64,000 bases of DNA from an uncultured Solirubrobacterales bacterium (GCA_963816975.1 CAWFMD010000006.1:1595008-1659007); one strand, 5' to 3'; shown: positions 2,041 through 24,489, numbered from the stretch's first letter. Numbers and translations are program-made. The notes: generated by a model from the sequence alone, not told the origin.

Positions 2041-3037
2041 CTCTGTTCACATCCAAGGCCTCGATCGCGTTCGAGAAGTCGAAGCCCGGCGTGGGGCCGC
2101 CCTCGATCGTGTAGACGCGGCGCCCGCGGGACACGACGCCCAGCCCATGGCGCGGGGTGCGCATTCCGGGCAGGCGGCTCCAGCGGCGGGTCGCGGGGTC
2201 ATACGCCTCGACCTCCCCGATCGTGCCCGTGGCCTCCTCGCCGCCGGCGACGATTACGCGGGGGCCGACCGCGGTCGCCCCGATGCCGCCGCGCGGCCTG
2301 CGCATGTCGGGCAGCCGCTCCCAGCGACGGGAACGCGGCAGGTAGCGCTCCGCGACCTTGAAGTTCCCCTGCCCGGTGACGCGCCCGGCGAGCACGTAGA
2401 ACGCGCCGCCGGCGACCGCTCCCGCGAGGTGCTCGCGCGCTCTGGCCATGCGCGGCCCGCGGGACCAGCGCCGGCGCGCGAAGTCGTAGATCTCGAGCGT
2501 CGCGAGCGCTCCCCGCGCCGTGTTCGCGCCGCCGGCCGCGTAGAGCTTGCCGCCGATCGCTCCGGCCGCGAGCGCGGCGCGCTTCGTGGGCGCGTCGGGC
2601 AGGCGCGACCAGCGGTCCCGGCGCGGGTCGTAGCGGTACAGGGAGGACACCTCGCCGCGCAGGTCGCCGCGGCCCGTGTAGCCGCCGATCACGTAGACCT
2701 TGCCTCGCCAGGCGACGGCCGCCGGGTGGTTCAGCCCCACCGGCATCGACCGCACGCGCCGCCAGCGGTCGCGCGCGATGTCGTAGCGCTCGACCGCCGC
2801 GGTCGTGGCGCCCGACCGGCGCTCGAAGCCGCCCACGACATACACGAACCGCCCCACGCGCGCGGCCGCCACCTCGGTGCGGCTCAACGGCGCCGGCCGC
2901 AGCGCTGTCCACCGGCCGGCGGCGCTGGAGCCGGCCTGCCGGTCGCCGTTCCCGGCCCCATCCGCGACGACCAGCACGGCCGCCGCCGCAACCCCGCTCA
3001 CCGCGGCCGCGGCGACCACCAGCGTGCCGCGGCTCAC
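2027..3037 (-). CDS. Kelch-repeat beta-propeller protein with N-terminal signal/TM segment
   Basis: About six Kelch repeats (VYVVGG, VYVIGG, LYAAGG, FYVLAG, VIVAGG, VYTIEGG). GTG at 3037 overlaps the TGA of the upstream small ORF; hydrophobic N-terminus. Confidence 0.85.
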   Translation of the reverse strand: MSRGTLVVAAAAVSGVAAAAVLVVADGAGNGDRQAGSSAAGRWTALRPAPLSRTEVAAARVGRFVYVVGGFERRSGATTAAVERYDIARDRWRRVRSMPVGLNHPAAVAWRGKVYVIGGYTGRGDLRGEVSSLYRYDPRRDRWSRLPDAPTKRAALAAGAIGGKLYAAGGANTARGALATLEIYDFARRRWSRGPRMARAREHLAGAVAGGAFYVLAGRVTGQGNFKVAERYLPRSRRWERLPDMRRPRGGIGATAVGPRVIVAGGEEATGTIGEVEAYDPATRRWSRLPGMRTPRHGLGVVSRGRRVYTIEGGPTPGFDFSNAIEALDVNRADRP

Positions 3038-3225
3038 CGGCGCTCCTCGTGCCCTGCGTCGCGCCGTTCGTGTCCGGGGCATTGGGCCACCGGCAGAGCG
3101 GGATAGCGCGGGTAGTCCGGATCCGTGCGCGAGCGCTCGCACAGCGAGAAGTTGGACCCGCGCGTCGTGTGGACGAGCCGCTGATGGCGGCAGGTGTCAC
3201 ACAGGCCTGCCCGCGGCCGAGACAT
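3034..3225 (-). CDS. Small Cys-rich hypothetical protein (63 aa, CxxC...C...C)
   Basis: ATG preceded by GGAGG. GTGA stop/start coupling to the Kelch gene. Four Cys residues. Confidence 0.65.
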   Translation of the reverse strand: MSRPRAGLCDTCRHQRLVHTTRGSNFSLCERSRTDPDYPRYPALPVAQCPGHERRDAGHEERR

Positions 3226-3296
3226 GCCCTCCCAGTATGGCAGCGGTCATGTGCCGCTCGCCGTGATCTGCGATTGTCCGGAAAACGGCGGAAGGA

Positions 3297-3752
3297 GTGG
3301 CAATGCCCGGACCACGGCTGAGCGAGACCCAGATGCGCCAGGGGATCGTGTTGCTCGGATTGACGCAACTGGCGATCGGCGTGTGGCTGGCGATCGGGCC
3401 CGACTCGTTCGTTGACTCGCTCGCCGACTTCGGCCCCGCCGACCATCACTTCCTGCGCGACATCGCGACCTTCCAGGCGGGGATCGGCATCGCGCTGATC
3501 GTGGCGGCGGGACGGCCCTCGTGGCGCGTGCCGGTGTTGTTCGCGGCCCTTGCCCAGACGGCCCTGCACACCGTCAACCACCTGTTCGACATCGGTGGCA
3601 CGGACCCCGGCTGGCAGGGCCCCGCCAACTTCGCGAGCCTGCTGCTGCTGACGGCCGGCACCCTTTACCTGATGCAGGAGGCCGCCAGGCTGGCACGCCC
3701 GCGCGACAGCGGTGACCCGCGACCGCGGGAGGCGGAGAGGCTGCCGGCATGA
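3297..3752 (+). CDS. Membrane protein (about 4 TM helices)
   Basis: GGAG RBS, four hydrophobic segments, ATGA overlap with the next gene. Confidence 0.75.
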   Translation: MAMPGPRLSETQMRQGIVLLGLTQLAIGVWLAIGPDSFVDSLADFGPADHHFLRDIATFQAGIGIALIVAAGRPSWRVPVLFAALAQTALHTVNHLFDIGGTDPGWQGPANFASLLLLTAGTLYLMQEAARLARPRDSGDPRPREAERLPA

Positions 3753-7641: not shown

Positions 7642-9054
7642 ATGCCCGTCTCCACCAAGGTCACAGAGCTCCCCGACTCGCGCGTGCGCCTCGATGCCGA
7701 GGTGCCGAGCGAGGAGATCGAGTCGCGCGTCCAACGCACGGCGACGCAGCTCGGGCGCGACCTGCGCATACCGGGATTTCGCAAGGGCAAGGTCCCGGCG
7801 CCGATGGTGATCCAGCGGATCGGGCGCGAGGCCGTGCTCGAGCAGGCGGTGCGCGACTCGCTGCCCGAGTGGTACGAGGAGGCGATCGTGCGCTCCGGCC
7901 TGTCGACGGTGGGCGACCCGAAGCTCGACCTGGACGACCTGCCTGTGTCGGGCGAGCCGCTGAGCTTCACGATCGAGGTCGGTGTGACGCCGAAGGCGAC
8001 GCTCGGCGACTACCGGGAGCTGGAGGTCGGGAAGCGCTCCCCCGAGGTGCCCGACGAGGCGATCCAGGCCGAGCTCGACCGGCTGCGCGAGTCCTTCGCG
8101 CGCCTCGAGAGCGTCGACCGGGCCGCCCAGCAGGGCGACCACGTCGTGATCGACTTCACCGGTCGCGTCGACGGGGAGCTGTTCAAGGGCGGCGAGGCGC
8201 GCGACTACATGCTCGAGCTGGGTGGAAACAGACTGGTCGAGGGCTTCGAGGAGCAGGTGATCGGCGCACGCGCCGGCGAGGAGCGGACCGTCGAGGTCCA
8301 GTTCCCCGACAGCTACCACTCCGAGGAGCTCCAGGGCCGCAGCGCGATGTTCGACGTGCAGGTCAAGGACGTGAAGCAGAAGCAGCTACCCGAGCTCGAC
8401 GACGATTTCAGCTCGGAGGCGAGCGAGTTCGACACGCTCGCCGAGTTGCGTGCCGACATCCACCACAAGCTCGAGCACGCGCAGGAGCATGCGATCGAAG
8501 ACGAATTTCGTCAGGAGGCCGTCGACGCGGCGGTGGCGGAGGCCGAGATCGATCTGCCCGAGGATCTCGTGACCGCGCGCGCGGAAGAGATGTGGGAGCG
8601 CACCGAGCGCGTGCTGCGCGCGCAGGGGGTCGAGCCGGAGTCGTACCTGAACGCGTCCGGGCGCACCCGCGAGCAGATGGTCGAGGAGGCGAAGGAAGAC
8701 GCGCGCCGCACCCTGTCACGCGAGAGCGTCCTGGAGGCGGTCGCGGAGGCCGAGGGCATCGAGGTCTCCGACGACGACCTGCTGGAGGCGCTGCAGCCCA
8801 CGGCCGAGCGGGAGGGCACCACGCCCGACAAGCTGCTCGCGCAGCTCAAGGACGCCGGCCGCGACGCTCCCGTCCGGCGCGAGCTGCGCCTGCGGCGCGC
8901 GGTCGACGCGATCGCCGACAGCGCGCGACCGATCGAGCCCGGTACGGCGCAGGCGCGGGACGCGCTGTGGACTCCCAAGAAGCAGGCCAAGGAGGAGGGG
9001 TCCCAGCAACTCTGGACCCCCGGCGCCGGTGACCCTCCCGGTCCCCAAGACTGA
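7642..9054 (+). CDS. tig: Trigger factor
   Basis: IPGFRKGKVP signature, FKBP domain (GDHVVIDFTG), position upstream of clpP-clpX. Confidence 0.97.
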   Translation: MPVSTKVTELPDSRVRLDAEVPSEEIESRVQRTATQLGRDLRIPGFRKGKVPAPMVIQRIGREAVLEQAVRDSLPEWYEEAIVRSGLSTVGDPKLDLDDLPVSGEPLSFTIEVGVTPKATLGDYRELEVGKRSPEVPDEAIQAELDRLRESFARLESVDRAAQQGDHVVIDFTGRVDGELFKGGEARDYMLELGGNRLVEGFEEQVIGARAGEERTVEVQFPDSYHSEELQGRSAMFDVQVKDVKQKQLPELDDDFSSEASEFDTLAELRADIHHKLEHAQEHAIEDEFRQEAVDAAVAEAEIDLPEDLVTARAEEMWERTERVLRAQGVEPESYLNASGRTREQMVEEAKEDARRTLSRESVLEAVAEAEGIEVSDDDLLEALQPTAEREGTTPDKLLAQLKDAGRDAPVRRELRLRRAVDAIADSARPIEPGTAQARDALWTPKKQAKEEGSQQLWTPGAGDPPGPQD

Positions 9055-9186
9055 CTCCCGCGTTGCGCGGGCAGGATCGCGCGTGCGCCCGGGGAAGCTA
9101 TCGGGCGTGACGCGACCGCTCGGAACTTCGTCCATGAGGTGCCTCCGGTGCTCGGAGAACCCTCCAGGACGCGGAATTCCCGTTGC

Positions 9187-9192
9187 TAGAAT
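9187..9192 (+). promoter_or_regulatory. Probable -10 element (TAGAAT) for clpP-clpX
   Basis: TAGAAT in the tig-clpP intergenic region, about 80 nt before the clpP ATG. Confidence 0.45.
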
Positions 9193-9270
9193 CGCCGCGC
9201 GACGGCGGGATTCGGACGTATTCGAACACAAGGCATTCAACGTCCAGGCGCTAGGCGCCGGAAAGGCAAT

Positions 9271-9855
9271 ATGAGCCCACTGGTTCCAATGGTCGTCGAG
9301 CAGACCTCCCGCGGGGAGCGCGCCTTCGACATCTATTCCCGCCTCCTGAACGAGCGGATCGTGTTCCTCGGGACGCCGGTCACGGAGGACATCGCGAACC
9401 TGATCGTGGCCCAGCTGCTGCACCTCGAGTCCGAGGACCCGGACAAGGACATCAGCCTCTACGTCAACTCCCCCGGCGGAAGCGTGTACGCGGGCCTCGC
9501 GATCTACGACACGATGCAGTTCATCAAGCCGGACGTCCAGACGATCTGCGTGGGCGTCGCGATGAGCATGGGGGCGCTGCTGCTGGCGGGCGGGGCCGAC
9601 GGCAAGCGCATGGCGCTGCCCAACGCGAAGATCCTGATCCACCAGGTGTCGGGGGGCTTCTCGGGCCAGGCCGCCGACATCGAGATCCACGCCCGCGAGA
9701 TCATCGACATCCGGCGCAAGCTGGACGAGATCATCGCGAAGCACACGAAGCAGCCGCTCGAGAAGGTCTCGCACGACACCGACAGGGACTACTTCATGAG
9801 CGCCGAGGAGGCCCAGGAGTACAACATCATCGACAGGGTCATCAGCGAGCACTAG
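9271..9855 (+). CDS. clpP: ATP-dependent Clp protease proteolytic subunit
   Basis: [19 protein letters not shown], catalytic Ser in [20 protein letters not shown]. Confidence 0.98.
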
Positions 9856-9925
9856 GGCGCGACTTATCGCCCCGCAGCCCCTACTCTGTAAAGGCGTCTG
9901 AGGGGGCGCGGGGGGAGAGACGACT

Positions 9926-11242
<1,317 letters not shown>

Positions 11243-11794: not shown

Positions 11795-12718
11795 CCCAGG
11801 TGCCGGCGCAGCACTGCGGCGATGCGCTGCGGTTCGTCGCGGACCTGCCGCCACGTGATCCGGATCACGCGCCAGCCCCGCTCCTGTAGGTAGAGGTCGC
11901 GGTCGCGATCACGGTGGAAGGCGATCGCGTGGCCATGCGTGGCGCGGCCGTCCGTTTCCACGACGAGCCTGTGCGCGGGCCAGTGGAAGTCGACCTGGAG
12001 CATGCCGACGTGGCCGTTCACGACGGGAAACGGCAGGCGGGCGCGGCGGATCAGGTCGAGCATCAGGCGCTCGAGCTCGCTCGCCGCCGTCGGGGGCTCG
12101 CCGGGCAAATCGGAAAGCAGACGGCGGAGCCTGCGCAGGCCGCGTTTGCCCTTCGCCGGTCTCGAGCGCCGCGAGTACCACGTCGAGGTCGAAGATCCGC
12201 AGCTCGAAGGTCCGTTCGAGCGCGCGGCGCAGCCGCCGCTCGCTCACGATGCCTGCCAGGTCGACCAGGGCCCGGGCCCACGTCGTGCAGGGGATGTTGT
12301 CCACGAGCGTCCGTTCCGATTCCGGCAGGGACCGCGTGACGTGCACGGCGATGCCGCGGTGTCGCCGTCCGCCGCCGCGGACCACGGTCACGTCGATCGG
12401 GCCGGAAGGGATCGGGCACAGGCCGATCCGCGCACCCGCCGCGCGGTGGCTGAGCCATGCGCCGTCACAGACCGCGAGCACCGCCGCCATGTCACGAGCA
12501 CCGGGAAGCAGCGCGGTGTGTCCCACGGCATAGACGCCGCGATGGAGCGGATGCAGGTGGCCGAGGTGAAGGCGGCGCTTGATCGTGTCCGAGGTGTGCC
12601 CGATCGCAAGCAATTGCGCCCGGCTGATCACCCCGTGCTGGCGGGCTGCCACCTCCGACACCGCCACCTCCGCGAGTGCGCGGTTTGGGGTGTCTATACG
12701 ACCCACAAAGTGTCGCAC
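11791..12718 (-). CDS. AbiEi-like N-terminal domain / DUF559 (very-short-patch endonuclease-like) protein, one frameshift near 12160
   Basis: One frame carries AARQHGVISRAQL...LHRGVYAVGH. The other carries SELER...VDFHWP..LVVETDG..H....FHRDRDRD..LQERGWRVIRITW. The join occurs at about 12160; start uncertain. Confidence 0.8.
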
Positions 12719-12757: not shown

Positions 12758-13384
12758 CTACGTCGCGGGGGTGTAGAGCGTGCGGATCCAGATCGTCGCG
12801 AGCGTCGCTACGACCGTGTCGACCGGCGTCGTCGGCAGCCGTCCGAGCGTCATCTGCAGGTAGCGCTCGTTCATCCAGACCAGCGCCGCGGCGGTCGGGG
12901 CGGCATCCATCGGCGCGATGCGCCCAGCCGCGATGTCGGCCTCGACGCGCGTCGCCGTCGCGACCACGAACCGCTGGACCAGGCCGTGGTACACGCGCTC
13001 CACCTCGGGGTCGTGGCCGGCCGCGTCCGCGATCGCGTGCAGCACCAGCCCGTGCTCCGCCCACACCTCCGCGACGCCGCGCAGCGACTCGCGGACGTCC
13101 ACGCGAGGGTCGTCGTTCCCGCCCTCCAGCCAGCGGTTCGCCACCTCGAACAGCGCCTCCCCGATCCCCTCCACGAGGCGCACGGCGAGGTGGTGGCGGT
13201 CGCGGAAGTAGACGTAGAAGGAGGGGCGGGAGAGGGTCGTGCGCGCCATCACCTCGTCGACGGTGAGGTCCCAGAAGGGCCGCTCGCGCAGGAACGACTC
13301 CGCCGCGTCGAGGATCTCGCGCTCGGCGGACTCCGGCGACCGGCGGCGGCGCCGCGAGGAAGTTCCTGGTGCGCTTATTGACAC
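12758..13384 (-). CDS. TetR/AcrR family transcriptional regulator, divergent from the monooxygenase operon
   Basis: ILDAAESFL...LTVDEVMARTTLSRPSFYVYFRDR helix-turn-helix. Start uncertain (GTG 13384 chosen). Confidence 0.9.
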   Translation of the reverse strand: MSISAPGTSSRRRRRSPESAEREILDAAESFLRERPFWDLTVDEVMARTTLSRPSFYVYFRDRHHLAVRLVEGIGEALFEVANRWLEGGNDDPRVDVRESLRGVAEVWAEHGLVLHAIADAAGHDPEVERVYHGLVQRFVVATATRVEADIAAGRIAPMDAAPTAAALVWMNERYLQMTLGRLPTTPVDTVVATLATIWIRTLYTPAT

Positions 13385-13406
13385 GATGTCAGTAAGCCTA
13401 TATGGT
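13378..13406 (+). promoter_or_regulatory. Sigma70-type promoter with overlapping inverted-repeat operator
   Basis: TTGACA (13378-13383), 17 nt, TATGGT (13401-13406). TGACA-CGA-TGTCA palindrome at 13379-13391. Confidence 0.75.
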
Positions 13407-13506
13407 CGCCGCTCGAGGGGCAACCAGAATGCCCGCCGGACGTCGACCACCGGCTGCCCGCCAAGCGTCGACCAACTGCCGGCCAGTTGCCGGGAGGAGA
13501 GCCCAC

Positions 13507-15174
13507 ATGAGCGCCACCACGACCCGCCGCCGCAGCATCACCAAGACGCACGAGCGCATCTCGCAGCTCGGCTGGGAGCCCGACTACTTCCAGCCCGCGG
13601 ACAAGTACCCGTCGCGCTACACGTTCCCGACCAAGGCGAAGGACCCGATGAAGCACATCATGCGGGAGTACCTGCCGATGGAACTGGAGAAGGACGAGCG
13701 CGTGTACGGCGGGCACGACGCCGCGGTCCGCGCCGGGATGACGGGCAAGACCGGCCGGCGCTGGATGGAGATCATCAAGCCGTACATCGTCACGACCGCC
13801 TACGCCGAGGTCGGCGCCGGCCGCTGCATGTCGATGCTGATCGACGCGATTCCCAACAACGAGCTGCGCAACGGCTATCACGTGCAGTTCGTCGACGAGA
13901 TCCGGCACACGGGCCTCCAGATGGCGCTCGCCCGCTGGTACGCGAAGCACGTGCCCGACCCGTCCGGGTGGCACCTCGGACCGGCGACGCTCTCCAAGGA
14001 CCCGGGCGCGCGGCAGGCGCTCAACATGTTGTCGCATTTCATCGTGGGCGACCCGGTGCAGTGCGCCTTCACGCTGATGGTCGTCGCGGAGACGGCGTTC
14101 ACCAACATCGCGTTCGTGGCACTGCCCGACGTGGGCGCGCGCAACGGCGACTTCGCGCTGCCGACCACGTACCTCTCGGTGCAGTCGGACGAGGCGCGCC
14201 ACATCTCGAACGGCTACGCGACGCTCCTGACCGTCCTCCAGGAGGACGACAACGCGCCGCTGATCGAGCGCGACCTCGCGCAGGCATGGTGGATCAACCA
14301 CGCCTACCTCGACGGCTTCGGCTCCGCGATCATGGAGTACAGCTCCGATGACCGCTCCGACCCCGAGAGCTACCTCGACAAGTGGGAGCGCTGGATCGAG
14401 AACGACTGGTACCGCTCCTATGTGCTGAAGCTCGGCAAGCTCGGCCTGAACTTCCCGGCCGAGATGTTCGACCGCGCGAAGGCGCGGCTCGAGCGCGGAA
14501 TGGTCCACAAGAACATGCTCAGCGCGGCGGCGTTCTGGATGCTGCACTTCTGGCGCACCGAGCCGCTGAACGAGCGTGACTTCGAGTGGTTCGAGGCCAA
14601 GTACCCAGGCTGGTATGCGGAGTACGGCCCGGCGTGGGAGGCCTTCCGCCAGACGCGGCACGACCCGCAGCAATTCAAGCACCTGCTGCACATGGCGCTC
14701 GAGCAGGCCGCGCCATCGTGCTGGGTGTGCCTGATGGGCTGCGTGTTCCCCGACGACATGTGCCACCGCGCGGTCGGCGACCGCACGCGGTTCTACTGCT
14801 CGAAGGAGTGCATGTGGCTCGACGAGTCCAACCCGGGCCGCTACGTCGGCGACCGCAACTTCTTCGACCGCTACCACGGGTGGGAGCTGTCGGAGCTGGT
14901 GCGCGAGCTCGGCTTCGTGCGCACCGACGGCAAGACCCTGATCGCCCAGCCGCATCTCGGCAACGACAACATGTGGACGCTCGACGACGTGAAGAGCATG
15001 GACTTCCAAGTGCAGAGCCCCAACATCACCGTCGCCGAGCAGCTGGGGCTGCCGAACGGATCCTCGGCGGGGCTGGTGTCCCCGAACGGCCACCTCGACG
15101 GCGGGCTGAAGGCCGCGGCGCCCTGGTCGAACGGGGCCGCGAACGGCAAGCCGGTGACCAGCACGCCGACGTGA
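13507..15174 (+). CDS. Soluble di-iron monooxygenase hydroxylase alpha subunit (ThmA/DxmA-like, group 5 type)
   Basis: GGAGGAG RBS. Di-iron ligands E101, DEIRH (E131/H134), VAETAFTN (E195), SDEARH (E229/H232). DP.K.I...Y..M..EKD.RVYG and CS.EC..NPGRYVGDR..FDRYHGWE motifs resemble ThmA as recalled. Confidence 0.93.
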   Translation: MSATTTRRRSITKTHERISQLGWEPDYFQPADKYPSRYTFPTKAKDPMKHIMREYLPMELEKDERVYGGHDAAVRAGMTGKTGRRWMEIIKPYIVTTAYAEVGAGRCMSMLIDAIPNNELRNGYHVQFVDEIRHTGLQMALARWYAKHVPDPSGWHLGPATLSKDPGARQALNMLSHFIVGDPVQCAFTLMVVAETAFTNIAFVALPDVGARNGDFALPTTYLSVQSDEARHISNGYATLLTVLQEDDNAPLIERDLAQAWWINHAYLDGFGSAIMEYSSDDRSDPESYLDKWERWIENDWYRSYVLKLGKLGLNFPAEMFDRAKARLERGMVHKNMLSAAAFWMLHFWRTEPLNERDFEWFEAKYPGWYAEYGPAWEAFRQTRHDPQQFKHLLHMALEQAAPSCWVCLMGCVFPDDMCHRAVGDRTRFYCSKECMWLDESNPGRYVGDRNFFDRYHGWELSELVRELGFVRTDGKTLIAQPHLGNDNMWTLDDVKSMDFQVQSPNITVAEQLGLPNGSSAGLVSPNGHLDGGLKAAAPWSNGAANGKPVTSTPT

Positions 15175-16193
15175 GTCCACGGGTCGTCTTCGAGCCGATC
15201 GGCGAGGAGATCGACTGCGACGAGGAGGAGTCCGTCCTCGACGCCGCGTTCCGGCACGGCTACAACCTCGTCTATGGCTGCCGGGAGGGCCAGTGCTCGG
15301 CCTGCAAGGCATACCTGCTGGAGGGCGAGGTGGTGCTGAAGCCCTATTCCACCTTCGCCCTGGCGGAGTCCGAGGAGGCAAGCGGCTACACGCTGCTGTG
15401 CCGCGCGATGCCCGAGGAGGACCTGGTCGTCGAGCTGCTGCACTTCGACCCGGACAACTACAAGCTCGCGCACGAGATCCGCGACGGGCGCGGCACCGTG
15501 ACGGCCGTCGAGGCGCTCACGCGCGACATCCGGCGGCTGGAGCTGGAGGTGGCCGAGCCGGCCGATTTCTCGTTTCTCCCCGGCCAGTACGTGGACGTGT
15601 GGGTGCCCGGGGCAGACGGCGCCCGCCGCTCCTTCTCGATGGCGAACTTGCCCGGCGACGGGCGCATCGAGCTGATCGTCAAGCACTATCCGGGCGGCCG
15701 GTTCTCGAGCCTGCTCGAAGGAACGCTGGCGCCCGGCGACGAGCTGCGCTTCACCGGCCCCTACGGCGCCTTCCACCTGCGCAGCAGCAAGCGCCCGGTG
15801 CTGATGGTGGCGGGCGGCTCGGGCATGGCGCCGGTCCTGTCGCTGCTGCGGACGCTGGCGGCCGAGGGCAGCGAGCGCATGGTCCGCTTCTTCTACGGCG
15901 CGCGCACCGAGGAGGACCTGTTCTACGTCGACCTGATCGGCGAGCTCGGCGCGGGGCTGCGCGACTTCGACTTCCGCCCCGTGCTCTCCGACACCGACGG
16001 CTTCGTGCACGAGGCGGCGGGCGAGCTGCTCGAGTCGGGCGCCATGGACGACCCCGAGATCTACATGTGCGGGCCGCCCCCGATGATCGATGCGATGATC
16101 GAGCTGGCAACGCAGCGCCACGGCATCGACGAGGCCGGCAGGATCTTCCACGATAAATTCACGACGTCAGCCGATGCGGTGGCTGCCGGATAA
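15171..16193 (+). CDS. Monooxygenase reductase subunit (2Fe-2S / FAD / NAD domains)
   Basis: CREGQCSAC...C ferredoxin, RRSFSMAN, GGRFS, GPYG, AGGSGMAP, YMCGPPPM. GTGA coupling to alpha. Confidence 0.95.
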   Translation: MSPRVVFEPIGEEIDCDEEESVLDAAFRHGYNLVYGCREGQCSACKAYLLEGEVVLKPYSTFALAESEEASGYTLLCRAMPEEDLVVELLHFDPDNYKLAHEIRDGRGTVTAVEALTRDIRRLELEVAEPADFSFLPGQYVDVWVPGADGARRSFSMANLPGDGRIELIVKHYPGGRFSSLLEGTLAPGDELRFTGPYGAFHLRSSKRPVLMVAGGSGMAPVLSLLRTLAAEGSERMVRFFYGARTEEDLFYVDLIGELGAGLRDFDFRPVLSDTDGFVHEAAGELLESGAMDDPEIYMCGPPPMIDAMIELATQRHGIDEAGRIFHDKFTTSADAVAAG

Positions 16194-16202
16194 GGAGGAG
16201 AG

Positions 16203-17294
16203 ATGTCCGCTGGCACAGGACCACCCGTGAAGCACGTCGGCGACGGCGCCCTGCGCCGCGGCGACGAGCCCGAGCGCTCGTTCCAGTGGTACACCCCGAA
16301 GAAGCGCAGGGCGTCGATCTACGAGGACGTGACCGTCGACTCGCAGCCCTCGGTGCACCGCCACATCCAGAGCGGGCGGGGATGGCCGCTCCACTTCGAG
16401 GATGGGCGCGGCCTGTGGTCGGACGACTCGACGCGGCTGCGCGCGGGCGACTGGTACGCCTTCCGCGATCCCGGCCAGATGTGGGAGCGGCCGTACTACC
16501 AGGCCGGCACCGCCTACGAGCAGCTGATCGAGGGTGCGGTCCGCACGGCCAAGCGCGAGCGGGCGCTCGACGACTTCACTCCCGAGTGGGTGGACTTCCT
16601 GCGCACGCACCTGCAGGTGCCGGCGTTCATCGAGCACGGCATCTGGCTCGCGCTGGCGAGCGCCGCGCGTGACACGCTGTCCGACACGGTCACGCACTGC
16701 GTGGCCCTGGAGGCGGCGATGAAGCAGCGCCAGGCCCAGGCCTGCCTGCTGTACGGCATGGACCTGGAGGAGCACTTCGGGGACTTCCCGGTCGAGCGTG
16801 CGCGCGAGAGCTTCCTCAACGACGCCGCCTGGCAGCCGGCGCGCAGCTACGTGGAGCGGCTGCGCGCGACGCCCGACTGGGCCGAGCGGGTGATCGCCGC
16901 GAACCTGTGCTTCGAGCCGGCCGTGGGCCTGCTCGTGCGGCGGGAGCTTTTCATGCGCTCCGTGCGCTTCAACGGCGACATCGTGACCCAGGCCGTCAGC
17001 CACGTGGCCCAGCTCGAGTGGGAGTGGGTGCAGGGCTGGACGACCGAGCTCGTGAAGTTCGTGCAGGAGGATCCCGAGCACGGTGCCGCGAACCGCGACG
17101 TGCTGGCGGACTGGCTCGCTGAGTGGATGCCGCTCGCCGATCAGGCGGCGCTCGCGCTGGCCCCCGTGTTCGGCGACCTGCCCGCCGGGATCTCGTTCGA
17201 CGACGCGCGCGCCAACGTGCGCGTCGACGTGGACCAGCTGTTCGGCGACTGCGGCCTGTCCGAGGCGGCCGCGCCGACCGGAGGTGCCACGTGA
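16203..17294 (+). CDS. Soluble di-iron monooxygenase hydroxylase beta subunit
   Basis: AAGGAGG RBS. YEDVTVDSQP, DWYAFRDP..MWERPYY, ferritin-like helical pattern lacking iron ligands. Confidence 0.92.
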   Translation: MSAGTGPPVKHVGDGALRRGDEPERSFQWYTPKKRRASIYEDVTVDSQPSVHRHIQSGRGWPLHFEDGRGLWSDDSTRLRAGDWYAFRDPGQMWERPYYQAGTAYEQLIEGAVRTAKRERALDDFTPEWVDFLRTHLQVPAFIEHGIWLALASAARDTLSDTVTHCVALEAAMKQRQAQACLLYGMDLEEHFGDFPVERARESFLNDAAWQPARSYVERLRATPDWAERVIAANLCFEPAVGLLVRRELFMRSVRFNGDIVTQAVSHVAQLEWEWVQGWTTELVKFVQEDPEHGAANRDVLADWLAEWMPLADQAALALAPVFGDLPAGISFDDARANVRVDVDQLFGDCGLSEAAAPTGGAT

Positions 17295-17621: not shown

Positions 17622-19629
17622 ATGAGTGAGCTGAACGAGGCCCGGCGCGCTGTGCTGCAGGCGGTGTGCAACACGGTCGTGCCGAGCATTCCCCACGACC
17701 CCGACCCGACCGGGCTGTGGGCGCGCAGCGCCACGGACATGGGTGCGGACCAGGGCATCGAGCAGGTCTTCGGCACGCTCCCGCAGGAGCAGTTCGCGGG
17801 GATGATGGAGCTGCTCGACGGCCTCGCGGCAGCAGGGCTTCACGCAGGTCTCGCAGCGCTCGCGCGAGCAGATCCTGCGCAACGTCGCGCTGGTCGGGCC
17901 CGAAGCCGCCGCCGGCATCTCGACGCTGGTGGGGCTGACGCTCTTCATCACCTATGGCGCACCCGACCCGGCGACCGGGCAGAACCCCAACTGGGCGGTG
18001 TTCGGCTATCCGGGACCGACCGCAGCGCCGCCCGCGCGGCCCAAGCCGATCGCGCCCGTCGCGCCCAGCGGCGACGAGCTCACGCTGGAGGCGGACGTGT
18101 GCATCGTCGGGTCGGGCGCGGGCGGCGGCGTGATCGCGGGCGAGCTCGCCAAGGCCGGCCTGAAGGTCTGCGTGGTGGAGGCCGCCGGCTACTTCAACGA
18201 GTCCGACTTCGACCAGCTCGAGCTGTCCGCATACGAGCGCATGTACTGGCGCGGCGGCCCGCAGCCGACCGCCGACTTCAACGTGACCGTGTACGCGGGG
18301 GTGGGGCTCGGCGGCGGCACGGTGATCAACTGGACCAACTGCCTGCGCACCCGTCCGTGGGTGCGGGAGCAGTGGGCGGGCGAGCACGGCCTCGAGGGCG
18401 TCGACGGCCCCGACTTCGACGGCCACCTGGACGCGATCTTCGAGCGGATCTCGGTGAACGACCGGTGCTCGGACCTGAACGGCCCGCACCAGCGCATGAA
18501 GGAGGGCGCGGACGGGCTGGGCTGGTCCTTCCGGACGATCCTGCGCAACACGGACGAGAGCTGCTACGACCCGGCCTCGGTCGCCTACATCGGCTTCGGC
18601 GACCAGTCGGGCTCGAAGCTCAGCACGCAGCGCACCTACCTGCAGGACGCGTTCGACGCGGGCGCCGACATCGTCGTGCGCTGCACCGTCGAGCGCGTGC
18701 TGGTCGAGCAAGGCCGCGCGGCGGGCGTGGAAGGGACATGGCTCGATCCCGAGACCGGCCGCTCCGCGCGGGTGACCGTGCGTGCGCCGCAGGTCGTGGT
18801 CGCGGCCGGCGTCGCTGGAGTCGCCCGCGCTGCTGCGCCGCTCGCAGATCGGCGGCCCGGCCGTCGGCAACTACCTGCGCATCCACCCGTGCACGGCGCT
18901 GTTCGGCATCTACGGTGAGGATCAGGAGGCGTGGTGGGGCGCGCCGCAGGCCGGGACTCGTGGACGAGTTCGCGGCGGTCGAGGACGGCTACGGGTTCCT
19001 CGTCGAGGCGACCCAGTACGCCCCCGCGCTGGTCGGCTCGGCGCTCCCCTTCACGGGCGCGCGCAGGCACAAGGAGATGATGGAGCAGGTGCGCTACGGC
19101 GCCACCTTCATCGGCCTGCTGCGCGAGCGCGGCCACGGCCGCGTGGACGTGGACGCAAACGGCCAGGCGGTGGTCTACTACGACCTCACCGACGAGCTTG
19201 ACATCCGCAACACCCACCGCGCGATCGACGCGCAGGCGCGCCTGCACGCGGCCGCGGGCGCGCGCGAGATCCAGCCGATGGCCGCCGGCGCCGCCGCGCT
19301 GGCGCGCGGGCGACGACCTCGACGAGTGCATCGCGCGCTGGCAGCGCGTGCCGCTGCGGGCGGGCGGCTTTCGCCTGTTCTGCGCCCACCAGATGGGCAC
19401 CTGCCGGATGGGCAAGGACCAGCAGACGAGCGTCGCCGACCCCTGGGGACAGCTGCACGACACGCCGGGCGTGTGGATCGGCGACGGCAGCGCGTTCCCG
19501 ACGGCCTCGGGCACGAATCCGATGATCTCGATCATGGCGCTCGCGCGGCGGACGGCCGGTGCGATCGCCTCCCAGCATTCGCCTGCGACGGGTCAGACGG
19601 CCCGCGAACCAGTCACCACGACCCGATAA
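17622..19629 (+). CDS. GMC oxidoreductase (long-chain alcohol oxidase-like), broken by four apparent frameshifts
   Basis: DVCIVGSGAGGG, GVGLGGGTVINW, VVVAAG, VGNYLRIHP, C-terminal AHQMGTCRMG and GDGSAFPTASGTNP. Frame changes near 17835, 18810, 18955 and 19295. Confidence 0.85.
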
Positions 19630-19638
19630 GGAGCACTC

Positions 19639-21076
19639 ATGGCCGTAGCCGCAGAACTTCAGGTACGCGACAAGCTCTTCATCGGAGGCGAGTGGGTCGA
19701 CCCGGCGGGGTCGGAGACGATCGACGTCGTGAACGCCGCCACCGAAGAGGTGATGGGCCGCATCCCGCAAGGCACGCCACAGGACGTCGACCGCGCGGTC
19801 GCGGCCGCGCGCGCGGCCTTCGAGTCGTGGTCCCAGGCGCCGCTCGAGGAGCGCGCGAACGTGGTCCGGGCGATCGCCGCCGGGCTGGCTGCGCGCAGCG
19901 ACGAGATCGCCGCGACGATCGCCCAGGAGCTGGGCATGCCGATCGGGCTGTCCAAGGCGATCCAGGCGGGCCTGCCGACGATGACGTTCACCTCCGTCCC
20001 CGACCTGGTCGAGGAGATCGTGTGGCAGGAGGAGATCGGCAACTCGCTGGTGGTCCGCGAGCCGATCGGCGTGGTGGGCGCGATCACTCCCTGGAACTAC
20101 CCGCTCCACCAGATCGCGGCCAAGGTCGCCCCGGCCCTGGCCGTGGGCTGCACGGTCGTGCTGAAGCCCAGTGAGGTTGCGCCCCTGAACGCGTTCATCC
20201 TCGCCGAGATCATCGCGGCGGCGGGCGCGCCCGCCGGAGTGTTCAACCTCGTCACGGGGACCGGCCCGGTGGTGGGCGAGGCGATCGCCTCCCACCCGGG
20301 GGTCGACATGGTGTCGTTCACCGGGTCCACGCGCGCCGGGCGGCGCGTCAGCGAGCTGGCCGCGCAGAGCGTGAAGCCCGTCGCCCTGGAGCTGGGCGGC
20401 AAGTCGCCGAACGTGATCCTCGACGACGCGGACCTCGAGACCGCGGTCACGGACGGCGTCTCGAAGTGCTTCCTCAACTCCGGCCAGACGTGCAGCGCGC
20501 TGACGCGCATGCTGGTGCCGCGCGAGCGGCTCGCCGAAGCGGAGCAGATCGCGGCGGCCGTGGCCGGCGCCTTCACCGTCGGCGACCCGTTCGGCGAGGA
20601 GACGAAGCTCGGCCCGCTGGTGTCCGACGTCCAGCGGGAGCGCGTGCGCGGCTACATCCGCAAGGGAGTGGACGAGGGCGCAAAGCTCGTCGCGGGCGGC
20701 GCGGAGGCGCCCGACGGTCTCGGCCGCGGCTACTTCGTGCGGCCGACCGTGTTCTCGGACGTGCGCAGCGACATGACGATCGCGCAGGAGGAGATCTTCG
20801 GTCCCGTGCTGTCGATCATCCCCTACGACGGCGAGGAGGACGCGGTCCGGATTGCGAACGACTCGAGCTACGGGCTGGCCGGCGGCGTGTGGTCGGCCGA
20901 CGAGGATCGCGCCAAGCGCGTCGCGCGCCGCATCAGGACCGGGCAGGTCGAGATCAACGGCGGGGTGTTCAACCCGCTGGCGCCGTTCGGCGGCTACAAG
21001 CAGTCGGGCCACGGCCGCGAGCTGGGGCGCTATGCCCTGGAGGAATATCCTCCAGGTGAAGTCCATGCAGCTCTGA
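19639..21076 (+). CDS. NAD-dependent aldehyde dehydrogenase (CddD-like subfamily), +1 base near 21050
   Basis: [27 protein letters not shown], catalytic Cys in [23 protein letters not shown]. The natural C-terminus [11 protein letters not shown] is in the adjacent frame. Confidence 0.92.
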
Positions 21077-21081
21077 GCCGC

Positions 21082-21858
21082 GTGCGGTTCGAGACGCTCG
21101 CGGCGGGTGGGTACGGCCTGCTGGAGGCCCCCTGCTGGGACGGGGACGGGGGCGTCTACTTCAGCGACGTGCTCCAGGGCGGCGTGCGCCGGTGGTCGGC
21201 GGGCGGCATCGAGGACGTGGTGCCCAAGCGGCGCGGGATCGGCGGGTTGTGCCGGCATGCGGACGGCGGATTGGTGATCAGCGGGCGCGACGTGCTGCGC
21301 GTGCACGGCGCCGAGCAGCGCGTGTTGCTGGGCGACGTGGAGGGCGTCACCGGATTCAACGACCTCGGCGTCGACCCGCAGGGGCGCGTGTACGTGGGGG
21401 CGCTGCGCTTCAAGCCGTTTGCGGGAGAGGAGCCCAAACCCGGTCAGGTGTGGAGGATCGACGCCGAGGGCGCAACGCCGGTGCTGGAGGGGATCGACTG
21501 GCCCAACGGGATCGGCTTCTCGCCCGACGGCGCCGAGATGTACGTGTGCGACTACGCCCATGGGACGGTGCGCGCGGGTGACGGCGGTACGTTCGCGCGG
21601 TCGCCGGCGGGGTCCGCGGACGGGCTGGCGGTGGACGAGACCGGTGGGGTATGGGTGGCGCTCGGCGAAGGCGGCGGCATCGCCCGGTTCGCGGCGGACG
21701 GCTCCCTCGACTCCCGCGTCGACGTGCCCGCCGATTTCGTGACGAGCCTGTGCTTCGGTGGCGACGACCTGCGCGACGTGTACGTCACGACCATGGGTGC
21801 ATTGCTGCGCGGCCGCTCCGACGTCGCCGGCCTCCCGGTTCCGGCCGCGACCGTTTAG
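21082..21858 (+). CDS. SMP-30/gluconolactonase/LRE family protein (lactonase)
   Basis: [58 protein letters not shown]. Confidence 0.9.
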
Positions 21859-21903: not shown

Positions 21904-24489
21904 GTGCCCCGCGAAGGATTGGACGCGCTCGAGGACCGCACCCGCTACGACCCCGCCGAGGTCGAGCCGCGCGTGCTGGAAAAGTGGCTGCAAGCCGGCT
22001 ACTTCCACGCCGATGCGCAGGGAACCGCGAGCGACAGCTACTCGATCGCGATACCGCCTCCGAACGTGACCGGCGTGCTGCACATGGGTCACGCCCTGAA
22101 CGCGGCAATCCAAGATGTCCTGATCCGCTTCAACCGGATGAGCGGGCGGCGCACCAAGTGGATCTTCGGGACCGATCACGCCGGGATCGGCACGCAGGCG
22201 CAGGTCGAGAAGGCGCTGCTCGCGGAGGGTACGAGCCGGGCGGAGTTGGGCCGCGAGGAGTTCGAGCGGCGCGTGTGGAAGTGGCGCGAGCGCTACGGCC
22301 GCGCGATCGTCGAGCAGTTCAAGCGCATCGGCGCCTCGGCGGACTACCAGGATGAGCGCTTCACGCTGGACGAGGGCTACGTCGAGGCCGTCATGAAGGT
22401 GTTCGTGGACCTGTACGACAAGGGCTACGTCTATCGCGACCGCTACATGGTGAACTGGGACCCGGGCACGCGGTCCGCGATCTCGGACCTCGAGGTGGAG
22501 GACCGCGAGGTCACCGACACCCTCTTCTACATCGACTATCCGCTCGCGGACGGCAGCGCAGTGGTGACCGTCGCCACCGTGCGGCCGGAGACGATGCTCG
22601 CGGACACCGCGGTCGCGGTGCACCCCGGTGATCAGCGCTACCGCGACATCGTCGGCAAGCAGGCGATCCTGCCCCTGGTCGGCCGCCCGCTCCAGGTCAT
22701 CGCCGACGACTACGTGAAGCCGGAGTTCGGCACAGGGGCATTGAAGATCACCCCGGGCCACGATCCCAACGACTTCGAGATCGGGCGCCGGCACGGCCTC
22801 GAGCAGGTCACGGCGATCGGCGAGGACGGCCACATGACGGAGGCGGCGGGGCGGTTCGCGGGGCTGACCGTGGACGAGGCGCGTGACGCGGTCGTCACGG
22901 CGCTGGAGCACGAGGGGCTGATCCGCAAGCGCGAGCCCTACACGCACACCGTGCCGTTCTCGCACCGGTCGGGTCAGCGCATCGAGCCGCTGATCTCGTT
23001 GCAGTGGTTCATGCGCATGGACGAGCTGGCCGGGCCGGCGATCGAGGCGGTGCGCGACGGCCGCGTGAAGTTCCATCCCGATCGCTGGGGGCGCGTGTAC
23101 CTCGACTGGCTCGAGCAGATCAGGCCGTGGTGCATCTCCCGCCAGCTGTGGTGGGGTCACCGACTGCCCGTGTGGTACTGCGACGCGTGCGACGAGACGT
23201 TCGTGAGCGTCACCGCACCGCCGCGCTGCGGCGCCTGCGATGGTGAGCTGCGGCGCGAGGAGGACGTGCTCGACACGTGGTTCTCCTCGGCCCTGTGGCC
23301 GTTCGCGACGCTCGGCTGGCCGCGCGACACACCCGCGCTCCGTGCCTTTTATCCGACGGATGCGCTCGTCACCGCGCGGGACATCATCTTCCTGTGGGTG
23401 GCGCGCATGGTGATGATGGGCCTCGAGTTCCGGGGGGATGTGCCGTTCACGGACGTCAACATCACGTCGATCATCCAGGCGCCGGACGGGCGCCGGATGT
23501 CGAAATCGCTGGGCACGGGCATCGACCCGCTCGACGAGATCGAGGCGCACGGCGCCGACGCGGTGCGGTTCGGGCTGCTCGCGATGTCGTCGTCCCAGGA
23601 CGTGCGCTACTCGCCGGAGAAGGTCCAGCAGGGCCAGCAGCTGGCGAACAAGATGTGGAACGCGTCGCGCCTGGTGCTGCTGAACGCCGCGGACGTGGAG
23701 CGCGCGCCGCGGCCCCGCACGGCCGAGGACCGCTGGATCCTGTCGCGCCTCCAGCGCGCGATCGCCCGCTGGAGAGAGCAGGTCGCCCGGTACGACTTCT
23801 CGCACGCGGCGCTCGACCTGTACGCGTTCTTCTACGGCGAATTCTGCGACTGGTATCTGGAGATGGTGAAACCGCGCCTGTACGAGCACGAGGAGGAGCT
23901 CTCCGCCACGGCGCTGTACGTGCTGGGCGAGACGCTCGCGCTTGCCCACCCGATGCTGCCGTTCGTGACCGAGGAGATCAACTCGTTCATGCCGGGCGCG
24001 GCGCGCGACCTGGCCGTCGGTCCCTTCCCGGAGCCTGACGAGCGGCTGGTGGACGAGCACGCCGAACGCGAGGTGGAGGCCGTGATCGAGACGGTGCGGC
24101 GCCTGCGCAACTACCGCGACTCGGTCGGAGCCCCGCCGTCGGCGCTGATTCCGGCGCGGCTCGTGGGCGAAGTCCACGAAGACTTCTTGGACTCCATCGG
24201 TCGCCTTGCGCGATTCGACATCACCACGGACGGTCGCGACGGTGAGGTTGTCGGCTCGATCGGGCTCGAGGGCGCGACCCTCGAGGTGCTGCCCAGCGAC
24301 ACGGTCGGTCCCGCGGAGGCGCGCGCGCGGATCGACGCCGAGCGCAACCGCCTGCGCGCCGAGGTCGAGCGCGCGCGCGGCAGGCTCGCGAACAAGGGAT
24401 TCACCGACAAGGCGCCCCCGCAGCTGGTCCAGACCGAGCGCCAGAAGCTCGAGCGCTTCGAGGCCGAGCTGGCCGAGCTCGATGAGTGA
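21904..24489 (+). CDS. valS: Valine--tRNA ligase
   Basis: PPPNVTGVLHMGHA (HIGH), WCISRQLWWGH, DVLDTWFSS, RMSKS, C-terminal coiled coil. Confidence 0.98.
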   Translation: MPREGLDALEDRTRYDPAEVEPRVLEKWLQAGYFHADAQGTASDSYSIAIPPPNVTGVLHMGHALNAAIQDVLIRFNRMSGRRTKWIFGTDHAGIGTQAQVEKALLAEGTSRAELGREEFERRVWKWRERYGRAIVEQFKRIGASADYQDERFTLDEGYVEAVMKVFVDLYDKGYVYRDRYMVNWDPGTRSAISDLEVEDREVTDTLFYIDYPLADGSAVVTVATVRPETMLADTAVAVHPGDQRYRDIVGKQAILPLVGRPLQVIADDYVKPEFGTGALKITPGHDPNDFEIGRRHGLEQVTAIGEDGHMTEAAGRFAGLTVDEARDAVVTALEHEGLIRKREPYTHTVPFSHRSGQRIEPLISLQWFMRMDELAGPAIEAVRDGRVKFHPDRWGRVYLDWLEQIRPWCISRQLWWGHRLPVWYCDACDETFVSVTAPPRCGACDGELRREEDVLDTWFSSALWPFATLGWPRDTPALRAFYPTDALVTARDIIFLWVARMVMMGLEFRGDVPFTDVNITSIIQAPDGRRMSKSLGTGIDPLDEIEAHGADAVRFGLLAMSSSQDVRYSPEKVQQGQQLANKMWNASRLVLLNAADVERAPRPRTAEDRWILSRLQRAIARWREQVARYDFSHAALDLYAFFYGEFCDWYLEMVKPRLYEHEEELSATALYVLGETLALAHPMLPFVTEEINSFMPGAARDLAVGPFPEPDERLVDEHAEREVEAVIETVRRLRNYRDSVGAPPSALIPARLVGEVHEDFLDSIGRLARFDITTDGRDGEVVGSIGLEGATLEVLPSDTVGPAEARARIDAERNRLRAEVERARGRLANKGFTDKAPPQLVQTERQKLERFEAELAELDE

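Follow-up and report, generated by a model that had tools for sequence, protein, structure and literature searches.

Directly behind a predicted soluble di-iron monooxygenase (SDIMO), genes for a GMC oxidoreductase, an aldehyde dehydrogenase (ALDH) and an SMP-30 protein lie at positions 17,622 to 21,858 of a 64,000-nucleotide stretch of DNA from an uncultured Solirubrobacterales bacterium (GCA_963816975.1, CAWFMD010000006.1:1595008-1659007; hereafter the window). The host genome comprises 2.95 Mb in six contigs with 70% G+C, the window corresponding to C6:1595008-1659007; judged by its relatives, it is the metagenome-assembled genome of a soil-dwelling, uncultured member of the Solirubrobacterales (Thermoleophilia). 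In an earlier annotation made from the DNA alone (the sequence-only reading), the three genes were taken to encode a candidate complete ring-opening pathway for the products of a monooxygenase acting on cyclic ethers such as tetrahydrofuran (THF). The question raised by the locus is which of these genes belong together, and whether they add up to such a pathway.

The best explanation, to which we assign a probability of about 0.7, is a six-gene catabolic island (SDIMO alpha subunit, reductase, beta subunit, coupling protein, GMC oxidoreductase and ALDH) with a divergent TetR gene, next to which the SMP-30 gene would be a bystander whose proximity is owed to chance, namely to where the island was inserted; as part of the same explanation, the reading-frame shifts in the GMC and ALDH genes are assembly errors. 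In the ancestor of this genus, the SMP-30 gene would already have been present upstream of valS when the island entered between it and clpX.

Conservation of the island

The alpha subunit was searched in 401 genomes of the order, which gave 45 matches, and the corresponding regions were fetched. The TetR-SDIMO-GMC-ALDH block was present in the same order in five genomes of genus g1 (G001, G002, G004, G005 and G006), in genus g3 (G013), in genus g4 (G009 and G016, and in G014 up to the contig end) and at loci L001, L002 and L004, with gaps of ~10-50 nt across the copies. The island is shared by three genera within a single Solirubrobacterales family and occupies at least three different genomic contexts; all relatives with the island have a TetR homologue at the corresponding position. 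GMC and ALDH are co-conserved with the SDIMO across these genomes and contexts (g1, g3, g4, L001, L002 and L004). Within the genus of the window (the five g1 genomes and, in part, G003), an AbiEi-TetR-SDIMO-GMC-ALDH arrangement lay between clpX and the SMP-30 gene.

For a wider survey, the corrected GMC protein (see below) was used as the query, and the loci of 80 species were then searched with all cluster proteins. An ALDH gene was located directly downstream of the GMC gene in ~75 of the 80 loci, its product being 67-87% identical to the window ALDH, whereas an SDIMO was located upstream in only four, the closest ones. According to these numbers, the pair is not specific to SDIMOs; of the expectation in the sequence-only reading that all three enzyme families co-occur with homologous SDIMOs, the part on GMC and ALDH stood for the closest relatives only and that on SMP-30 fell. 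In a maximum-likelihood tree of 87 GMC proteins, the ten SDIMO-linked copies formed one clade (SH-aLRT 100) that was nested among unlinked GMC-ALDH cassettes, such that SDIMO linkage corresponds to one change on the tree. This single nested clade, together with the synteny of the island, indicates that the cassette was recruited once to this SDIMO and that the block then moved as a unit.

The alternative that survives best is that GMC and ALDH form an independent, general alcohol-to-acid cassette (acting, e.g., on fatty alcohols) outside the monooxygenase pathway. It draws on the many unrelated neighbourhoods in which the pair occurs and on the fact that most SDIMO homologues in the order are not accompanied by GMC-ALDH, but it does not sit well with a linkage that was kept through the divergence of three genera while relocating as one block with TetR, with short gaps devoid of promoter-like sites, or with the linked GMC proteins forming a distinct, well-supported clade. 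We regard it as rather unlikely.

The SMP-30 gene

Forty relatives were searched with the SMP-30 protein, and 20-kb regions were fetched. The order clpP-clpX-SMP30-valS-folC was found without an adjacent island in seven relatives (G009, G010, G011, G012, G013, G014 and G016), four of which carried the island elsewhere, either 31 kb away (G016) or on other contigs (G009, G013 and G014). Conversely, no SMP-30 gene was detected beside GMC in any of 82 GMC-centred loci (search at E 1e-10), and none was found beside the islands of g3, g4 and L002. Across genomes, SMP-30 was thus not co-conserved with the SDIMO or with GMC-ALDH, an outcome that the sequence-only reading had itself named as refuting, and the lactonase step is left unsupported. 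Since clpX-SMP30-valS exists without the island and the island exists elsewhere without SMP-30, the SMP-30 gene is best viewed as an ancestral neighbour of valS. Throughout one family of the Solirubrobacterales (L098-L102), clpX and valS are separated by an SMP-30-like gene, an odd conserved housekeeping setting for a putative lactonase.

The protein itself is probably a functional metal-dependent hydrolase, because its Glu/Asn/Asp metal ligands align with those of regucalcin (3g4e/4gn7); they also align with those of 7plb. It contains an SGL domain (PF08450, E 3.3e-44), as do SMP-30/regucalcin-type lactonases, but is distant from these (best E 6e-19) and shorter (258 aa compared with ~290-300), and its partners are clpX and valS rather than any catabolic gene. 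The best solved relative was the SMP-30/Cgr1-family protein 7plb, which we take to be a sugar (xylono-)lactonase; no NCBIfam equivalog was found for the SMP-30 protein.

In a consensus scan, the only well-scoring promoter-like site between clpX and valS was the one at 13378-13406, with no further promoter-like site on the plus strand from there to valS; the last terminator-like site (16928-16944) lay inside the beta-subunit gene, with none between it and valS. These scans weakly suggest that the island genes are co-transcribed. Given the 5-nt gap behind the ALDH gene, the single promoter-like site and the lack of a terminator-like site from 16944 to valS, the SMP-30 gene may be read through from the island promoter. 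Such read-through would be a consequence of the insertion and not evidence of shared function.

The monooxygenase and the proposed ring-opening pathway

As judged from translations and from Pfam matches of orthologues, the SDIMO genes are arranged in the order characteristic of group 5 (alpha-hydroxylase, reductase, beta-hydroxylase, coupling protein), a group delimited by an amino-acid identity of the alpha subunit of at least 40% (PMC11825192). The closest characterised relative of the alpha subunit found was ThmA of Rhodococcus ruber YYL, with 51.3% identity over 94% of the length, whereas its best solved relative was sMMO MmoX (E 8e-76); no NCBIfam equivalog was found for it. Other plasmid-borne SDIMOs found, presumably members of groups 3, 4 and 6, were ~40% identical in the alpha subunit, and a megablast search of the whole cluster against plasmids gave ALDH-level matches only. 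Subgroup A of group 5 unites many enzymes from Actinomycetota metagenome-assembled genomes (MAGs) with the Thm enzymes, and group 5 as a whole has varied substrates, including propane, acetone, phenol, THF, dioxane and others (PMC11825192). Because group members use so many substrates, 51% identity to ThmA does not fix the substrate. Gene order and the closest characterised relative found are Thm-like; a cyclic-ether substrate is possible but unproven. Literature searches yielded nothing specific on SDIMOs in Solirubrobacterales.

A complete THF-type ring opening would require the GMC enzyme to convert lactol to lactone and/or 4-hydroxybutyrate to succinic semialdehyde, the SMP-30 protein to hydrolyse the lactone and the ALDH to form succinate. 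We consider it improbable. The group-5 gene order, the relationship to ThmA, the placement of Actinomycetota MAG enzymes with Thm in subgroup A, the possibility of read-through across the 5-nt ALDH-SMP30 gap and the retained metal ligands of SMP-30 are all compatible with it; in addition, no lactonase is apparent in the thm cluster of R. ruber YYL, in line with the remark in the sequence-only reading that this step is not clearly assigned in known thm clusters, which in principle leaves room for such an enzyme. However, SMP-30 accompanies the SDIMO or GMC-ALDH in one genus only, where it predates the island between clpX and valS, and among solved structures it is closest to 7plb, the presumed sugar lactonase. 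With the upstream and downstream ALDHs of the thm cluster on pYYL1.1, the window ALDH shares just 42% and 32% identity, respectively, too little to count as an orthologue of either, and it scored below the cut-offs for succinate-semialdehyde dehydrogenase (TIGR01780, 349 vs 646 bits; NF006916, 352 vs 521), which speaks against the role in succinic semialdehyde oxidation proposed for it. Moreover, the similarity to ThmA leaves propane, acetone, phenol and THF users in the same group, and GMC plus ALDH could reach succinate via 4-hydroxybutanal without a lactonase. With SMP-30 not conserved alongside the island and nothing at the locus that identifies a cyclic-ether substrate, the complete ring-opening pathway is not supported.

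Frameshifts in the GMC and ALDH genes

As deposited, the GMC gene runs through frames 0, 1, 2, 0 and 1 in succession, i.e. it contains four +1 shifts, located approximately at 17827-17832, 18810, 18951 and 19291. The ALDH gene contains one extra base at 21047-21049 (GAATAT-C-CTCCAG), which turns it and the SMP-30 gene into one in-frame fusion of 739 aa (open reading frame (ORF) 19639-21858). The three co-oriented genes that had been described behind the coupling protein were confirmed with respect to family and plus strand by Pfam, but they are not three clean genes, the five shifts having gone unmentioned. Likewise, the reported gaps of 22, 9 and 5 nt do not exist in the sequence as written and are obtained once the five extra bases are ignored (coupling protein stop 17599, GMC start 17622; GMC stop 19629, ALDH start 19639; ALDH TGA 21074-21076, SMP-30 GTG start 21082).

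DNA alignment with six orthologues (G001, G002, G004, G006, L001 and L002), all of them intact at the five sites, showed that each lesion consists of one extra base (17827, equivalently 17831/2; 18810; 18951; ~19291; 21047). Over its entire length, the corrected GMC protein of 667 aa could be aligned with over 100 intact homologues (660-670 aa; highest identity 90%), and the ALDH orthologues end in ...EE[FY]LQVKSMQL followed by a stop. Short-read contigs from two soil metagenomes, which matched the window at ~99% identity with 0-2 mismatches across stretches of 176-380 nt, lacked exactly one base at both 17831/2 and 18810. Removal of these two bases yields DGLAAQGF... and AAGSLESPALL..., in agreement with the family consensus. 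For 18951, 19291 and 21047, which lack near-identical coverage, the interpretation as errors is based on the comparison with orthologues and on the genome-wide pattern; the organism was present at only ~2-3x in the short-read contigs used.

When the complete genome was scanned with a Viterbi method based on codon position, 212 candidate shifts emerged, of which 137 were +1. Some 20 clusters contained at least three shifts (e.g. C4:126000-129100, C3:273000-278100, C3:117199-118781 and C6:1705000-1710500); several were situated at contig ends, and several comprised +1 shifts only. The clusters strike gatA, gatB, genes for pyruvate:ferredoxin oxidoreductase subunits, panB and others, and in related long-read MAGs valS, clpP, folC and ALDH genes are also split. 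When the GMC gene was compared with its G006 orthologue, differences at codon positions 1/2/3 amounted to 48/36/175, the same third-position-dominated divergence as between pairs of intact orthologues, which argues that the gene is not decaying.

Most likely, erroneous insertions in the long-read metagenome assembly account for the four GMC frameshifts as well as for the fusion of ALDH with SMP-30. That they are real, leaving a GMC pseudogene, a true ALDH-SMP30 fusion and a downstream pathway that is decaying or rewired, has a small chance only. This view can appeal to the presence of the five bases in the deposited sequence and to the three sites lacking independent read evidence, but it would have to explain why all five lesions are +1 insertions, unaccompanied by a stop or other lesion, why near-identical short-read contigs contradict two of them, why essential genes (gatA and gatB) of the same assembly show similar clustered +1 shifts, and why the codon-position pattern matches that of intact orthologues and the genes are intact in G001, G002, G004 and G006. 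Programmed +1 frameshifting, considered for the four shifts of equal direction in the GMC gene, was rejected, because the orthologues have no shifts, two of the shifts are missing from the short reads and many unrelated genes are affected in the same way. With +1 insertion errors clustered in this genome, any pseudogene or gene fusion that it seems to contain is suspect.

The GMC oxidoreductase and the ALDH

Pfam domains were detected on the frame pieces of the GMC gene (GMC_oxred_N, E 1.6e-33; GMC_oxred_C, E 1.4e-20). The protein has an N-terminal extension of ~150 aa, a GxGxxG-type N-terminal FAD motif (GSGAGGG), and residues H589 (AHQMGTCRMG) and N632 (GTNPM), which are invariant in the homologue alignment; a C-terminal His and Asn/His pair is catalytic in GMC enzymes. 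Among solved and named proteins it had no close relative, and among NCBIfam models no equivalog. Known long-chain alcohol oxidases are fungal or plant GMC enzymes (PMC9299179), and nothing specific was found in the literature on bacterial ones of the GMC type. The ALDH matched Pfam Aldedh over essentially the full profile (E 1.1e-162, positions 1-455 of 461) and contains the catalytic Glu (ELGGKSP) and Cys (GQTCSA) in its translation; no NCBIfam ALDH equivalog reached its cut-off.

The combination of a ~660-aa GMC protein with a ~150-aa extension and an ALDH is a two-gene cassette very widely kept in Thermoleophilia. It also occurs scattered in Actinomycetes (Nocardia, Virgisporangium and Streptomyces) and in one Chloroflexota MAG, and no characterised member was found. 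In Streptomyces sp. NBC_01381 (L111), a TetR gene is followed by GMC-ALDH-acyl-CoA synthetase-esterase.

Proposed route

According to the island reading, the di-iron monooxygenase would hydroxylate the substrate, the flavin-dependent GMC enzyme would oxidise the product, a primary alcohol (alternatively a hemiacetal or an omega-hydroxy acid), to an aldehyde, and the ALDH would oxidise that aldehyde to a carboxylic acid. Since GMC and ALDH are conserved directly behind the SDIMO in different contexts, in three genera, a role downstream of the hydroxylase is reasonable, and this part of the sequence-only reading is supported; the specific chemistry of the two enzymes is inferred. In principle, GMC and ALDH could convert THF to succinate, with 4-hydroxybutanal and 4-hydroxybutyrate as intermediates. 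Oxidation of acetone to pyruvate, by way of hydroxyacetone and then methylglyoxal, or of an alkane hydroxylated at its terminus to the corresponding acid would be equally conceivable, and the data do not choose among these routes.

Several points weigh against the island reading. Genus g2, whose alpha subunits are 82-83% identical, and other families (60-72%) carry the SDIMO without this GMC-ALDH pair, which shows that the pair is not required by the SDIMO family. As the pair is in turn common without an SDIMO, the adjacency could reflect the chance merger of two modules that was later inherited. The roles of GMC, ALDH and the other island proteins are predicted from sequence context. Three of the five shift sites (18951, 19291 and 21047) are spanned by no near-identical short-read contig. 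Finally, characterised group-5 SDIMOs hydroxylate mostly subterminal carbons (PMC11825192), so that alkanes would give ketones and not aldehydes.

A more specific version is a compact three-step route in which a Thm-like SDIMO, a GMC enzyme and a single ALDH under one TetR regulator suffice, with no need for an NAD-dependent alcohol dehydrogenase or a lactonase. A cyclic ether would be converted to a dicarboxylate via a 4-hydroxy-aldehyde and a 4-hydroxy-acid, or a ketone (acetone) to a 2-oxoacid via a hydroxyketone and an oxoaldehyde. We put this forward as a tentative idea that is more likely wrong than right by a good measure. If true, these modules would have been welded together in a small clade of Solirubrobacterales that are abundant in soil but uncultured. 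We know of no group-5 SDIMO with a GMC enzyme in place of the NAD-dependent alcohol dehydrogenase among the Prm and Thm accessory sets, and to our knowledge the hydrocarbon and ether metabolism of uncultured soil Thermoleophilia is essentially unstudied. For pathway hunting, SMP-30 is removed as a tempting but wrong candidate, and the unit of interest narrows to SDIMO, GMC, ALDH and TetR.

Comparison with known systems

The locus resembles the ThmADBC systems of Pseudonocardia spp. and of R. ruber YYL (pYYL1.1) in its alpha-reductase-beta-coupling order, in its alpha subunit and in the presence of ALDH genes in the cluster. In the thm cluster of pYYL1.1, the monooxygenase is flanked by an ALDH on either side, and genes for a hydroxyacid-oxoacid transhydrogenase, a GntR regulator and an EthD protein are also present; the cluster lies on a plasmid, surrounded by transposases, and has neither a GMC gene nor a lactonase gene, whereas the window locus is chromosomal, has a TetR regulator and one ALDH, and encodes a GMC flavoenzyme instead of an NAD-type alcohol dehydrogenase. 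Nothing specific was found in the literature on a lactonase in thm clusters.

In the alk operon of Pseudomonas putida GPo1, the AlkB hydroxylase acts together with the GMC-type alcohol dehydrogenase AlkJ, the aldehyde dehydrogenase AlkH and the acyl-CoA synthetase AlkK. The island follows the same succession of hydroxylase, GMC flavin alcohol oxidoreductase and ALDH, and the Streptomyces cassette, with its additional acyl-CoA synthetase and esterase, fits this alk-like logic. The likeness is one of logic; the window hydroxylase is a soluble di-iron enzyme instead of the membrane-bound AlkB, and the GMC protein has the extra ~150-aa N-terminus.

By gene order and the 40% threshold, PrmABCD and MimABCD of Actinomycetes belong to the same SDIMO group (PMC11825192). 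Downstream of the monooxygenase, Prm and Mim clusters usually encode a GroEL-like chaperonin, an amidohydrolase and an NAD-dependent alcohol dehydrogenase; the window operon has none of these as a neighbour.

Gene content of the locus and related operons

To the left of the island, tig, clpP and clpX are followed by a small ORF and the AbiEi-like gene; to the right of the ALDH gene, the SMP-30 gene is followed by valS and folC. Features are listed in Table 1. The start of the TetR gene is probably located downstream of the first start codon of its ORF.

Table 1. Features of the locus, in window coordinates (GMC and ALDH lengths after removal of the extra bases)
Feature	Position	Strand	Basis and remarks
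clpX	9926..11242	+	Translation, synteny; left flank of the insertion site
AbiEi-like regulator gene	11909-12718	-	Between clpX and the TetR gene; probable frameshift near 12153
TetR/EthR-type regulator	12758..13450	-	Pfam TetR_N and EthR_C; divergent from the monooxygenase
Promoter-like site TTGACA-17-TATGGT	13378..13406	+	Consensus scan, 10/12 matches; points at the alpha subunit gene
SDIMO hydroxylase alpha subunit, 555 aa	13507..15174	+	Pfam Phenol_Hydrox in orthologue
SDIMO reductase	15171..16193	+	Fer2/FAD_binding_6/NAD_binding_1 in orthologue, translation; 4-nt overlap with alpha
SDIMO hydroxylase beta subunit, 363 aa	16203..17294	+	NCBIfam beta-subunit model, E 2e-35 (under cut-off); orthologue Pfam
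Coupling/effector protein MmoB/DmpM, 102 aa	17291..17599	+	Translation; MmoB_DmpM in orthologue; 4-nt overlap with beta
GMC flavin oxidoreductase, 667 aa	17622..19629	+	Pfam GMC_oxred_N/C; intact full-length homologues
NAD(P)-dependent ALDH, 478 aa	19639..21076	+	Pfam Aldedh, E 1e-162
SMP-30/gluconolactonase/LRE-like six-bladed propeller hydrolase, 258 aa	21082..21858	+	Pfam SGL, E 3e-44
valS	21904..24489	+	Translation, synteny; right flank of the clpX-SMP30-valS-folC backbone

AbiEi-like homologues were found at the matching position in G001 and G004, which suggests that the gene either moves together with the island or delimits it on the left. A 242-aa ORF that follows the ALDH gene in L002 and G016 was dismissed as an operon member, as it belongs to a multi-copy family with ~10 further copies elsewhere in the genome of the window; the products of this family look secreted. 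The ORFs behind the ALDH gene of L005 were likewise set aside, as neither relatives nor Pfam domains could be assigned to them; island copies outside genus g1 thus yielded no conserved operon member after the ALDH gene.

A different family of the order has a homologous SDIMO operon with a small ORF just after the coupling-protein gene; in L154 and L156, Pfam identifies it as an SCP2 (sterol-carrier-like) protein, and in L152 and L161 a small ORF occupies the same position. The SCP2 protein of L154-type operons hints at a hydrophobic substrate. In L154 (G035; region 7782-9868), a different, 553-aa GMC oxidoreductase is encoded behind the SCP2 ORF, and the SDIMO-GMC adjacency may thus have arisen twice. 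In family f5, a different ALDH gene is located directly upstream of the alpha subunit gene (L149 (G034), 2073-3479; L150 (G021), 14206-15612); its product is 44-45% identical to the window ALDH, and the gene is placed like the upstream ALDH gene of the thm cluster.

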